Shown here one piece after another: positions 34,787 through 46,684 of a stretch of DNA of 64,000 nt (position 1 is the first letter of the stretch; every line of letters starts with the position of its first letter). Where the stretch lies: the NCBI GenBank assembly GCA_964583985.1, contig CAZOYD010000013.1, positions 1 through 64,000 of the forward strand, read 5' to 3'. Source of the stretch: an uncultured archaeon. Lineage in GTDB: Archaea > Asgardarchaeota > Lokiarchaeia > Sigyniarchaeales > SOKP01. The notes below the pieces were generated by a model that did no database searches, had not been told where the DNA came from, and saw only the letters and a list, made by a program, of their open reading frames with translations. The position numbers were made by a program, and so were the translations under genes.

Positions 34787-35926
34787 TTAGGTTTTTTTTA
34801 ACTCCATTTGGCTAATCGCTTTACCCGATCTAAAAGGAATGTCATCAAGGCTCTCCCCTGAAGAATACCCAAATTTCTTTCTAAATGCATCATTTAATGA
34901 TTGGAAGTATAGTGAAAGTGGCAAGTGTTGAGGACAATTATTATCGCAGTTACCGCATTCAATGCAACGATCTGCAACGTGTGCTATGCGCGTTAATTGA
35001 TATGTTTCTTTATTTATGGTCTTTTCTTTACGTTTCTTCTGGAGAATGCAATCTACGCAATAACAAACGGGACATCCTCTAATGCATGTATTACACATGG
35101 TACATGCTTGAAGTCTCGAAATTTTTTCCGCTTGAGGTAATTTGTCCCATTCCTCAAGATCTTTTACTCGTTTTGCCAAGGAGGTCTCCTTGATTTCTTT
35201 AATTTTATCCGAAAGTTTTGTTTTGAGATCGGTTGGAAGTGGTTTCTTATTAATCTTCGATTTTTCTACAAGATCATTTCCTTTTTCAGAATAAACCTTC
35301 AATACTATTTCATCTGAATCGATGGCCATTGATAAGTCACTGATGCTTAAATCCGCAACCACAGGGATTTTTCGAGTGCACCTGCTGCAATTATCAGCTA
35401 TATTTAATGCAACATCGACAACGCTTCCATCTTCCATTTTAAACATCAATCCATTATCGCCGATTTTTTCTTTCACAATCTTGGTCTTATCGATATCTGG
35501 GAAATTTCGCATCTCTCGAGAGACATTAATAACCATTCCTCTATCTTCAAATGCGATAATGAATAAATTATCCAAATTGACCTGTTTAATTTTCGCAAGT
35601 TCAATTAAGCCCCTTGTATCACAAGGGCGTGCAATAAGACCAATTTTTTCATGTAAGGCACCTTCAAGTGTCTTATGAAGGTATTTTGATGCCGTATCTG
35701 TTCTCGCATACCCATAAGCTAATAAATTGGTAAGCGGAAAGGAAGTTATATCATCTACCTTTTCATATACTACGGGTTGTACCGTGAATCGATCTTCCAC
35801 GTTAGTCTTTTTATCTACCTTAGTTTCGGCTCCCAAAATCTTATCTACGACTCTTTCCTTGAGAAGTGTAGTTAAAAGTTTTGGAAAATCATCAATTTTT
35901 ATTAGATATTCTGCAATTGAATCCAT
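34787..35926 (-). CDS. FdhB/FrhB-like (F420-interacting beta subunit family) Fe-S protein
   Basis: KIGLIARPCDTRGLIEL, CSRC...ADLSI, CTMCNTCIRGCPVCYC, CIECGNCDNNCP. Confidence 0.8.
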   Translation of the reverse strand: MDSIAEYLIKIDDFPKLLTTLLKERVVDKILGAETKVDKKTNVEDRFTVQPVVYEKVDDITSFPLTNLLAYGYARTDTASKYLHKTLEGALHEKIGLIARPCDTRGLIELAKIKQVNLDNLFIIAFEDRGMVINVSREMRNFPDIDKTKIVKEKIGDNGLMFKMEDGSVVDVALNIADNCSRCTRKIPVVADLSISDLSMAIDSDEIVLKVYSEKGNDLVEKSKINKKPLPTDLKTKLSDKIKEIKETSLAKRVKDLEEWDKLPQAEKISRLQACTMCNTCIRGCPVCYCVDCILQKKRKEKTINKETYQLTRIAHVADRCIECGNCDNNCPQHLPLSLYFQSLNDAFRKKFGYSSGESLDDIPFRSGKAISQMELKKT

Positions 35927-36065
35927 GTCTTTCCATCTCAGAGTTATTAAAATATTTTTATACTTTGTTTGTAAATTTTCATTAAATCTTATTTTTTATT
36001 CTTACTTTTTAAAACTTTATACTTTTTAGTAATATAAAACTTATGTGTTTTATGGTGCATACCAT

Positions 36066-36110
36066 TTCTTCAACTGAATTCTCATTTTTTTAACTCAGTT
36101 TCATTAGATA
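36066..36110 (-). ncRNA. Eukaryote-like SECIS element (cis-acting, 3' UTR of hdrA-mvhD)
   Basis: RNA reads UAUCUA-AUGAA-ACUGAGUU-AAAAAAAUGAG-AAUUCAGU-UGAA-GAA: an AUGA/UGA tandem G.A core, an 8-bp helix and an apical A run, directly downstream of two UGA-containing genes. Confidence 0.85.
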
Positions 36111-36123
36111 ACACTTTAATTAT

Positions 36124-36597
36124 TCACGTTTTGGCTTTTTTCATTGTGTCGCCCTTAGACTTAAAAGGACTTTGTCCTAACTCCCGTATGACCTTATCAA
36201 ATGCAGTAGCATCTTGCTGGAACTTTTGTCCTTCTGCTGCGGTGCACCATCCCATACGAATTCGTTTTTCACTGATTCCCATTGATTTGAGTACTTCTTT
36301 TACATACTCAACTTCCCGGTATGCAAAATAATTCCCTGTTTCATAATCGCATTCTTTTGGATATCATCCAACAATCATGACACCATCAGCTCCTCGCCCA
36401 AATGCCCTCATTATTAAATCCGATCCGACTCGTCCGGAACAAGGCACGAGTACCGTTCTAATTGAAGAGGGATATTGAGCTCGGATAGTTCCCGCCATAT
36501 CTGCACTGCCATATCCTCATTTTTGTGTGACTCTCGTTTCGAGAGCCTCATTCCAACAGAGGAAGGCAATTATTTTAATATCAATATCTTCAGTCAT
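36124..36597 (-). CDS. mvhD: Selenocysteine-containing hydrogenase/Hdr iron-sulfur subunit D (MvhD/VhuD), 157 aa, 2 Sec
   Basis: Absent from the ORF track. Reads MTEDIDIKIIAFLCWNEALETRVTQK-U-GYGSADMAG...QYPSSIR...PCSGRV...ADGVMIVG-U-YPKECDY...CTAAEG. The TGAs at 36517-36519 and 36364-36366 align with Cys in the paralog at 46217-46684. GAGGT RBS upstream. Confidence 0.92.
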
Positions 36598-36610
36598 TTT
36601 AGTTACCTCT

Positions 36611-38581
36611 TTATTCTTCTATAGGAAGTAATTCATCAAGTAATGCCATGTATTGAATATCCCTAAAATAGGTCAGTTCGATTGCTTGTGATGGACAGAT
36701 AGCGGCACACGTGCCGCAACCTCGACATTTAATTAAATCCACGACGATATTTCCGTTTTGATTTATCGAGATGGCACTATACGGACACGCTTCGATGCAT
36801 TTATAACATTTAGCACATCGTTCATCGGAGGGAGTTGCTCGAATTAATTCCATGGTATATTCTCCTTTACCCATGGGAATACCAGCAGCTGATGCTGCAC
36901 CTCGAGCTTGCCCAACAGCGTACGCAATTCCTTTCTGACCTTGACATGAACCTGCGAGATATATTCCAGGAACCTTGGTGCTAATGGGGTCTAATCTAGG
37001 ATGGTATTCCTTGAGAAAGCCATCAGGACTTTTTTCCATGTTAAGCACCTGCGCAATTTCATTAGTACCTTGAGAGGGTAGGGATGCTGATGAGAGAATT
37101 ACCATGTGAAATTCCTCCTCCACGACTGCGTCAGCTCCGACGATCTCCATTTGAACTTTTAGATTTTTCGTTAAAGGGTCTTCTTCAATTTTTCCTACAA
37201 GTCCTTTAGTGAAAATGATTCCCGCATCTCGAGCTCTCCTGTAATATTCTTCATAATCTTTTCCGCAATTCCTCATATCAATGTAAGATACCATGATTTG
37301 GGTTTCGGGATGTTCAGATATAATTAACTTTGAATTTTTTACCGATAAGTTACAACAAACTACTGAACAATAGGGATTAGTCTTCACATCTCGAGATCCA
37401 ACGCAATTTATGAACAATATTTTTGTAGGTCGTTTTTTATCAGAAGGTCTAATTAAATGACCATAAGTAGGTCCATTAGGGGCTAGAATTCGTTCTAGTT
37501 GGATTTGAGTCAGGACATTTTCATATTTCCCATATCCATAATCAGGTCCCTGATAGATGTCCCAACCCGTGGCTACTATGATTGTTCCTACATCAAGCTC
37601 CACGATCTCATCTTGCATGCTAAAATCTACGGATTCTTGGTCACATGCATCAACGCATCCAAAACATTCAACACAAGATTCTCTCACGAGATCATAAACA
37701 GCGGGTACTGCTTGAGCGAAAGCAATGTCAATGACCTTTCGAGCCGAAAGATTCTCATCAAAGTAATTAGGAACATAAATCGGACACACGTCAGTGCATT
37801 GTCCACATCCCGTGCACGTTTTTTCATTCACAAATCGTGCTTTTCTTCGAATTTTTACTTTGAAATTGCCAATATAGCCATCAACAGATTCAACTTCTGA
37901 ATATGTCATTAAATTGATTTTTGGATGCCTATTAGCTTCAAGCATCTTTGGGCCAAGTATTCAAATGCTACAATCATCGGTAGGGAATGTTCGATCCAAC
38001 TGGCTCATCCTTCCTCCTATTGTACTCTTTTTCTCAACCAAGTGGACTTGATAACCCGCATTCCCTAGATCAATGGCAGTACTGAGTCCTGCAATTCCAC
38101 CTCCAACCACTAAAGCAGCTTTGGTGACTGGAACGGTTTTAGTAGGTACGGCTTCTAATAATCTCGATCGTGCTATACCAGCCTTTATCAGATCTATAGC
38201 CTTTTGAAGAGCTTTCTCTCGTTCCTTTTGATGTACGAATGAACATTGTTCTCTAATATTTACAAACTCTAAATATCTTGGAGGTAAGCCTGCTTCTGCT
38301 AAAATTGCATGAAAGACGGGTTGGTGCGTTTTTGGCGTGCAAGCAGCAACCACGATTCGATCCAATTTGGCTTCTATGATCTGTTCTTTGATATAGGTTG
38401 ATCCTCCTTCAGTACACATTGATAAATACTCGAACGCTTTTACTCCAGGAAGTTTATTAAGTTCTTCAACGATCGTAGGAATATCCAAAATACCAGCGAT
38501 ATTGATACCTCAGCGACACACGAAAACGCCAACGTTTTCTAAATCTTTATTCTCTATATCTTTGGTCTGTTTTTCAGACAA
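36611..38581 (-). CDS. hdrA: Selenocysteine-containing heterodisulfide reductase subunit A, 656 aa, 2 Sec
   Basis: Track ORFs 37961-38488 and 36611-37945 are in one frame. TTG start at 38581 after AGGTG. VGVFVCR-U-GINIAG (TGA 38510-38512) and TFPTDDCSI-U-ILGPKM (TGA 37961-37963) match CQCGINIAG and DCSLCILAPKM in the Cys paralog. Confidence 0.95.
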
Positions 38582-46216: not shown

Positions 46217-46684
46217 TTATTGACAATATTTTAACTCAATTATCCCTTTTTTTTTTGGAATTTTGCTTTCTCCTAATTTTTTAACAGTATTAGTGAAATC
46301 TTTTATGAGTTCAGCAAATTGTTTTCCCTCGCTTGCTGAAATCCAATGCAATCTAAACCTTTCGTCTTCAATTCCCAAGCTTTTCACTAATTTTTTAAGA
46401 TGTTCCATTCGAACTTGTGTTAGTTCATTTCCACTAATATAATGACAATCTCCAATATGGCAACCCGTAACTAATATTCCATCAATTCCATTGGCAAACG
46501 CGTTCAATATAAATGTTGGTTGAACCCTTCCAGAACACATTACTCGAACAATGCGAATATTGGGAGGATATTGAAATCGTGAAACGCCAGCTAGATCTGC
46601 TCCGGCATAAGAGCACCAATTGCAACAAAATACTAATATTTGAGGTTCATAATCTTGCTTCTTCTTTGATTTACTTACTGTCAT
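46217..46684 (-). CDS. mvhD: Hydrogenase/Hdr iron-sulfur subunit D, Cys form
   Basis: FCCNWCSYAGADLAG, MCSGRV, GCHIGDCHY, WISASEG. Confidence 0.95.
   Translation of the reverse strand: MTVSKSKKKQDYEPQILVFCCNWCSYAGADLAGVSRFQYPPNIRIVRVMCSGRVQPTFILNAFANGIDGILVTGCHIGDCHYISGNELTQVRMEHLKKLVKSLGIEDERFRLHWISASEGKQFAELIKDFTNTVKKLGESKIPKKKGIIELKYCQ

Follow-up and report, generated by a model that had tools for sequence, protein, structure and literature searches.

Does a selenoprotein gene of an Asgard archaeon encode ten extra residues in the middle of its CxxU motif, or do the bases concerned leave the message before it is translated? The question is raised by a stretch of 64,000 nucleotides (nt) from an uncultured member of the Lokiarchaeia (GenBank assembly GCA_964583985.1, contig CAZOYD010000013.1, positions 1 to 64,000; hereafter the window), and within it by the gene Sec-mvhD, which lies on the minus strand at 36597..36124 (ATG at 36597-36595, first selenocysteine (Sec) codon UGA at 36519-36517, second at 36366-36364, stop TGA at 36126-36124). 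The product is an FlpD/MvhD protein (PF02662, E 3.7e-41, residues 24-141 covered), and the gene, which is small and has two in-frame TGA codons, was missed by standard calling of open reading frames (ORFs). Comparison with other Asgard genomes suggests that the 30 nt at 36550..36521 are very likely a spliced archaeal bulge-helix-bulge (BHB) intron within the mvhD coding sequence. In what follows, G-numbers stand for genomes (G000 being the source genome, 3.8 Mb), L-numbers for loci, C for contigs, and g and f for genus and family groups.

The insert, its fold and its counterparts in other Asgard genomes

As read from the DNA, the Sec-mvhD protein runs F-L-C-W-NEALETRVTQ-K-U-G-Y; in its CxxC/U motif, the Cys codon and the Sec codon are pushed apart by exactly 30 additional bases (36550..36521). 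A sequence-only reading of the window had remarked on these ten codons by comparison with a Cys-type MvhD paralogue (46250..46618, minus strand; canonical F-C-C-N-W-C-S-Y), and the sequence and the paralogues of the genome bear it out: all 12 other FlpD paralogues of G000 have CxxC or CxxU with two residues between the ligands, and the closest of them, on contig C23, reads C-W-K-U and has no insert. When 40 related genomes were searched in six frames, the orthologue turned up in 12 genomes of the same genus (73-88% identity, always with two TGA), and 11 of these 12 have no insert and read F-L/M-C-W-K-U (with one Y for W). The CxxC/U spacing is likewise constant in 38 distinct intronless Sec-MvhD sequences. 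FlpD/MvhD-domain paralogues occupy 13 loci in G000; four FlpD loci have in-frame TGA at the conserved Cys (three with two, one with one), and several others are fused into larger proteins with open frames of 800-1160 aa.

The extra bases contain a hairpin, GGCUCUCG-AAA-CGAGAGUC (36547..36529), and an outer UCCUC/GAGGA stem is also present, overlapping the UGA itself as had been pointed out from the letters; the 50 nt from 36563 to 36514 fold at -18.1 kcal/mol (z = -3.88), and 0 of 200 dinucleotide shuffles were as stable. The 30-mer occurs a single time in the 3.8-Mb genome. These elements can be arranged as a complete hBHBh' motif (36514..36563, minus strand; helices h, H and h' with two 3-nt bulges), the motif of archaeal tRNA and rRNA introns as defined in bioRxiv 10.64898/2026.10.13.758758. 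Helix h joins 36563-36557 with 36519-36514 (UCCUC.G / UGAGGA) and includes the Sec UGA, the central helix H joins UUGG (36556-36553) with ACAA (36526-36523) by 3 of 4 pairs, and the intron hairpin h' spans 36549-36527. The bulges, with ^ for the predicted cut, are AA^U (5', 36552-36550) and AA^A (3', 36522-36520). In BHB introns the splicing endonuclease EndA cuts after the second base of each bulge. By this rule the excised piece would measure 1 + 23 + 4 + 2 = 30 nt, and removal of 36550..36521 restores UGU UGG AAA UGA, that is C-W-K-U, with UGUUGGAA joined directly to AUGAGGAUAUGG at the predicted spliced junction; the predicted peptides are IIAFLCWK-Sec for the spliced and IIAFLCWNEALETR for the unspliced message. 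The same excision had been put forward from the letters as a relaxed BHB intron, a proposal that the comparative evidence supports down to the cut sites.

The gene would accordingly consist of three parts, all on the minus strand. Exon 1 (36551..36597; ATG ... UGU UGG AA) encodes M-T-E-D-I-D-I-K-I-I-A-F-L-C-W plus 2 nt of the Lys codon and is colinear with the N-termini of the 11 intronless orthologues; the putative 30-nt mini-intron (36521..36550) reads U-GAGGCUCUCGAAACGAGAGUCAC-ACAA-AA in the messenger RNA (mRNA); and exon 2 (36124..36520) begins with A, followed by UGA(Sec) GGA UAU, and runs through the second Sec codon at 36366-36364 to the stop TGA. The first Sec codon (36517..36519) lies 1 nt downstream of the predicted 3' splice site and aligns with the Cys or U of all paralogues.

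Two pattern searches, one for TGGAA plus a gap plus the conserved start of exon 2 over metagenome and species-genome collections and one with a second pattern over 399 Asgard genomes, together returned 13 distinct inserts at the same site, with lengths of 21, 22, 30 or 31 nt. Four 30-nt inserts belong to genus g1, two of 31 nt to genus g22 of the same family (G250 and G273) and two of 31 nt to family f4 of the same order (G028 among them), and in family f20, whose named records are Jordarchaeales, five of five genomes have the insert (22 nt in four, 21 nt in one). The orthologue in G023 has a 30-nt insert at the identical site with another stem (GAGACUUUC ... GAAAGUCUU) and an in-frame TAA, a version present in three independent assemblies; since it differs in its stem and carries a stop, the insert is not a conserved peptide. 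The 22-nt and 31-nt inserts stand between an intact exon 1 (ribosome-binding site, ATG ... A-F-L-C-W) and an intact exon 2 that is out of frame, so that these genes are broken if the insert is neither cut out of the message nor skipped. We take the stop codon and the frame shifts in homologous inserts to be the decisive facts. An in-frame, stop-free insert was found in G000 and in its metagenomic relatives L044 and L045.

Two further observations concern individual copies. The 21-nt insert of family f20 (L085, G171:C1:441227-441273) is also in frame and stop-free (K-G-F-D-S-P-Q-K-U) and so parallels the G000 copy. The g22 introns (L087, G250:C33:7246-7302; L088, G273:C39:10922-10978) sit in the other Sec-MvhD paralogue type (RPIRINC, like that on G000:C23). 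Their site, however, is identical, as is the ACAA/AAA 3' end, and this suggests that the intron is ancient, that it was transferred between paralogues or that insertion has recurred at a ready half-BHB site.

A common geometry was seen in 13 of 13 inserts. Exon YUGG pairs with four intron bases, those just before the final two; a 3-nt bulge (AAU/AAA) follows YUGG and another (AAA/AAG) lies opposite; the intron hairpin begins right after the 5' bulge and stops right before the 4-bp helix; and exon CCUC.G pairs with UGAGG outside the bulges. The cut rule gives UGY UGG AAR UGA, C-W-K-Sec, in every one. Helix H has 4/4 pairs in G023 and in all five f20 copies, and in the 22-nt family the unconstrained minimum free energy (MFE) fold is itself the BHB. 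In the alignment of the Loki inserts, 86.7% of cells are paired, compared with at most 48% after a shift of the partners by 1-3 columns, and both sides change in four pairs; for the alignment of f20 the figures are 100% and at most 51%, with one such pair. Helix h is paired in 94-100% of cells and helix h' in 85-100%, with five pairs changed on both sides over both alignments, and we regard these counts as supportive of the structure, not decisive. Comparison of presence, absence and pairing across Asgard orthologues, which the sequence-only reading had also had in mind, reveals a patchy insert whose pairs are preserved while its sequence changes.

The exons appear to be shaped by the same structure. 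Phe-Leu is written UUC CUC in eight of nine distinct intron-bearing genes (the ninth has UUC CUG) compared with 2 of 38 distinct intronless genes, sequences that were gathered without any condition on these codons; the Fisher p value of 1.2e-6 is overstated, as the sequences are related. UUC CUC supplies the CCUC that pairs with GAGG. When a DNA tree was built from mvhD exon 2 together with the 3' end of hdrA, the intron being excluded, the four genes with 30-nt inserts and the intronless gene of G006 grouped in a single clade (support 88/95; inner node 100/99); this pattern implies either one gain and one precise loss or two gains. A protein tree of the 122-residue exon 2 left the 30-nt group unresolved.

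Splicing and its alternatives

How would such an intron be removed? In the hdrA-mvhD transcript, exon UCCUC.G would pair with UGAGGA as helix h and exon UUGG with intron ACAA as the 4-bp helix H, and the intron hairpin would form h', leaving the bulges AAU and AAA on opposite strands. A two-subunit EndA may then cleave each bulge behind its second base and RtcB may ligate the exons, and the product UGU UGG AAA UGA GGA (C-W-K-Sec-G) would have the spacing of every other MvhD. Cleavage and ligation in vivo, and their efficiency, are what we infer here from sequence.

Several points weigh against this reading. Helix H of the G000 copy has a G.A mismatch and with 3 of 4 pairs makes a relaxed BHB, and nearest-neighbor energies make the BHB conformer about 8 kcal/mol less stable than the MFE fold, in which GUU/AAU are paired instead. 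The G000 copy is in frame and stop-free, and an unspliced message could yield a protein with a 10-residue loop. The EndA cut rule was checked here only via colinear products in three genes, and the covariation statistics come from 5-6 related sequences and are modest against a shuffle control. Exact-protein look-ups gave 23 contigs from many samples for five of the seven proteins, and all of these contigs keep the intron, with no spliced contig among them. The look-ups of the window's own two proteins returned no record. As for the cut rule, the boundaries that ARAGORN gave for tRNA introns of G000 were predictions too noisy to check it, and the cut position is not spelled out in PMC12397907.

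Could the ten codons simply be translated? NEALETRVTQ would then be a genuine loop between cluster ligands, and the hairpin either incidental or active in an mRNA from which it is not removed. The frame is indeed open through the insert in G000, L044 and L045, and for the G000 copy and its closest relatives only, a translated loop is possible; as an account of the insert, however, this option of the sequence-only reading is quite improbable. It is impossible for the homologues with the TAA of G023 or with frame-shifting inserts of 31 and 22 nt, and it conflicts with a CxxC/U spacing that is invariant in 12 paralogues and in the 38 distinct intronless Sec-MvhD. Moreover, between G000 and L044, its nearest metagenomic relative, the insert is identical at 25/30 nt and 7/10 aa and is thus less conserved than exon 2, where identity is 92% for nt and aa alike; the changes in the insert keep the pairing rather than the residues.

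Programmed translational bypass, in which the ribosome jumps across a hairpin between a take-off codon and a landing codon that matches it, would also explain short hairpins of varied length that restore the frame if skipped, and we consider it less probable still. Bypass elements are known from T4 gene 60 and from the mitochondria of Magnusiomyces (byp elements). Like them, the mvhD inserts are short, GC-richer hairpins in AT-rich coding sequence that must be skipped for the frame to hold, and the 22-nt family does have AAA before the insert and AAA or AAG at its end. Unlike them, the Loki family has BHB geometry and no matched take-off and landing codons: the codons are AAU before the insert and AAA at its end in G000, G023, L044, L045, G250 and G273, and the insert ends of the 30/31-nt family repeat only 2 nt. 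Nor do the codons match in rpo1N, another interrupted gene of G000 described below (CAU before, CUA-A at the end). The strict geometry of 3 nt, 4 bp and 3 nt, together with the constraint on exon pairing, is characteristic of an EndA substrate and not of a signal for bypass.

A recoding role, as a stimulator of Sec insertion that lies in the coding sequence upstream of the UGA and may derive from a selenocysteine insertion sequence (SECIS), had likewise been suggested from the letters, and it has position on its side: in each lineage the distance from the insert to the downstream Sec codon is 1-10 nt, and helix h includes the UGA. As with the Loki SECIS (Mariotti 2016, PMC4989117), the hairpin lies in the same operon and in G000 starts with AUGA. 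In contrast to that element, it lacks the 3' GA, its loop is of 3 nt and it lies in coding sequence; nor is the AUGA conserved, since the 22-nt family and the 31-nt inserts of f4 do without it. A complete Loki-type SECIS is already present in the 3' untranslated region (36070..36104, minus strand), with AUGA, a 9-bp stem (AACUGAGUU/AAUUCAGUU), an 11-nt A-rich loop (AAAAAAAUGAG) and GA; it was read by eye from the sequence and agrees with PMC4989117, which reports such an element, with its 9-bp stem and an apical loop of 11 nt, for each Loki hdrA-vhuD pair. Decoding of the same UGA takes place with no insert in the closest paralogue and in 11 orthologues, the frame-shifting lengths would go unexplained, and a permissive Rfam search of 35900-36700 gave nothing meaningful. 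A role in recoding is therefore extremely improbable.

The SECIS belongs to an operon of known type, as Lokiarchaeota have an hdrA-vhuD tandem with one common SECIS (PMC4989117). In the window, Sec-hdrA, an ORF with two in-frame TGA (36611..38581, minus strand), lies upstream of Sec-mvhD and is separated from it by a short spacer, and the four UGA codons of this hdrA-mvhD operon presumably all depend on the SECIS at 36104..36070. This element sits 20 nt past the stop codon of mvhD, which is UGA too.

Decay of the gene, or an error of assembly or sequencing, is barely credible as a source of the insert. With five Sec-type and eight Cys-type FlpD paralogues in G000, one copy could be dispensable, but both exons are otherwise intact and conserved, and the insert, which has a defined structure and one exact location, recurs in five of five f20 genomes. 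Independent assemblies of close relatives, from at least five samples, bear the same insert, so the assembly artefact that the sequence-only reading had allowed for can be set aside. Near-identical genes occur in the JGI samples 3300031359, 3300031364, 3300031552 and 3300076654. Among other classes considered, group I, group II and spliceosomal introns were rejected, since a length of 21-31 nt falls far below theirs and GU...AG ends are missing; an intein does not fit a frame that is broken in homologues; and in ribosomal frameshifting a one-base slip cannot skip 22-31 nt.

Splicing enzymes and other interrupted genes in G000

Enzymes of the kind that a spliced BHB intron calls for are encoded in the same genome. 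We found two EndA paralogues with PF01974 above the Pfam cut-off (C4:51753-51977 and C3:71349-71597; the two EndA ORFs have 208 and 206 aa) and an RtcB (C1:155665-156978, PF01139). Asgard EndA belongs to the (alpha-beta)2 type, with a loop for broad substrate specificity (PMC5829648), and in Crenarchaeota a hetero-oligomeric EndA of broad specificity has been tied to the splicing of cbf5 pre-mRNA (PMC2738675).

At least two further genes of G000 are split by similar BHB inserts. The first is rpo1N, where a 31-nt, frame-breaking insert (G000:C2:24757-24787, minus strand; BHB with GGAC/GUCU, AU^U and AA^A) interrupts the otherwise invariant GHFGH-IELARPV motif as GHFGH^IELARPV, and the cut rule restores the motif. 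If this RNA polymerase gene needs such repair, the organism must splice mRNAs. The other is an AIR-synthase-related gene (PF00586 and PF02769) that was found by a scan for BHB motifs and open frames; its 30-nt insert (G000:C123:4513-4542, equal to L095:1214-1243, minus strand) contains in-frame TAA and TGA and forms a perfect BHB (ACGU/GCGU, AA^G and AU^C). Spliced by the cut rule, this gene reads H-V-T-R and is colinear with intronless orthologues, and the interruption occurs in 8 of 37 same-genus matches.

Genome-wide, a scan for BHB motifs whose removal fuses two long frames gave 128 candidates compared with 102-125 for shifted-position controls, that is, no enrichment; because it is blind to in-frame stop-free introns and to relaxed motifs, it sets no bound on their number. 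Most of the candidates were ordinary gene junctions, and only the AIR-synthase-like gene on C123 stood out. A regular-expression search for an intron in RNase HII, with the single motif used, gave no match.

Known introns and significance

A precedent for an intron of this class in archaeal mRNA is that of cbf5, which reportedly was studied also in Watanabe 2002 and Yoshinari 2006. This BHB intron is found in Crenarchaeota (Desulfurococcales, Sulfolobales), in the pre-mRNA of cbf5 (Yokobori 2009, PMC2738675), and like the mvhD insert it is patchy among relatives, with gain and loss (PMC2738675). The two differ in several respects: the mvhD host gene encodes a selenoprotein, the lineage is Asgard, the length is 21-31 nt, the insert ends 1 nt before a Sec codon that is itself included in helix h, the G000 copy is in frame and stop-free, and its splicing is deduced from sequence. 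With an FlpD/MvhD (PF02662) host gene, the mvhD intron stands outside the cbf5 intron family; the mechanism class is common to both, and the introns are not homologous.

A second comparison is with the introns of structural RNAs. The tRNA-Sec of Lokiarchaeota has a 31-nt intron (PMC4989117), and Asgard archaea have many tRNA introns (bioRxiv 10.64898/2026.10.13.758758). The mvhD insert resembles archaeal tRNA and rRNA BHB introns in its two 3-nt bulges on opposite strands of a 4-bp helix, in its size range and in the presumed action of EndA and RtcB. It differs from them in its mRNA host and in that the exon half of the structure is made of codons (UUC CUC UGY UGG AA / A UGA GG), so that the structure constrains synonymous sites. 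In the literature searched, BHB introns inside archaeal coding sequences were described only for cbf5; two Asgard selenoprotein surveys (one of them PMC4989117) make no mention of a vhuD/mvhD intron, and the Jordarchaeia paper and bioRxiv 10.64898/2026.10.13.758758 make no mention of mRNA introns. We therefore read the mvhD insert as a putative BHB intron in mRNA that is unusual in its host lineage, in its position 1 nt before a Sec codon and in having an in-frame copy.

The recurrence of that position invites a more speculative idea, to which we would give a rather low probability. In three divergent Asgard lineages, and in Sec-MvhD of both types, a single nucleotide separates the end of the putative intron from the Sec codon, and the exon-exon helix includes the UGA; splicing might therefore gate or time selenoprotein synthesis, or the site might be a preferred landing place for mobile BHB introns. 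With gating, only spliced mRNA would give the CxxU protein, and unspliced mRNA would give a truncated, frame-shifted or loop-bearing product. A preferred landing place could be explained by codons that already supply half of the BHB motif. If true, either possibility would mean regulated or mobile tRNA-type introns in the mRNAs of the closest archaeal relatives of eukaryotes.

The host gene of the insert encodes a selenoprotein central to the energy metabolism of Asgard archaea, which are the closest known relatives of eukaryotes. Genes of this sort are mis-read by standard gene callers and in selenoprotein surveys. The in-frame, stop-free copy in G000 offers a natural test case for two protein isoforms from one archaeal gene. 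If our reading of the insert is right, Asgard cells would splice mRNAs routinely, which bears on the origin of interrupted genes before eukaryotes.
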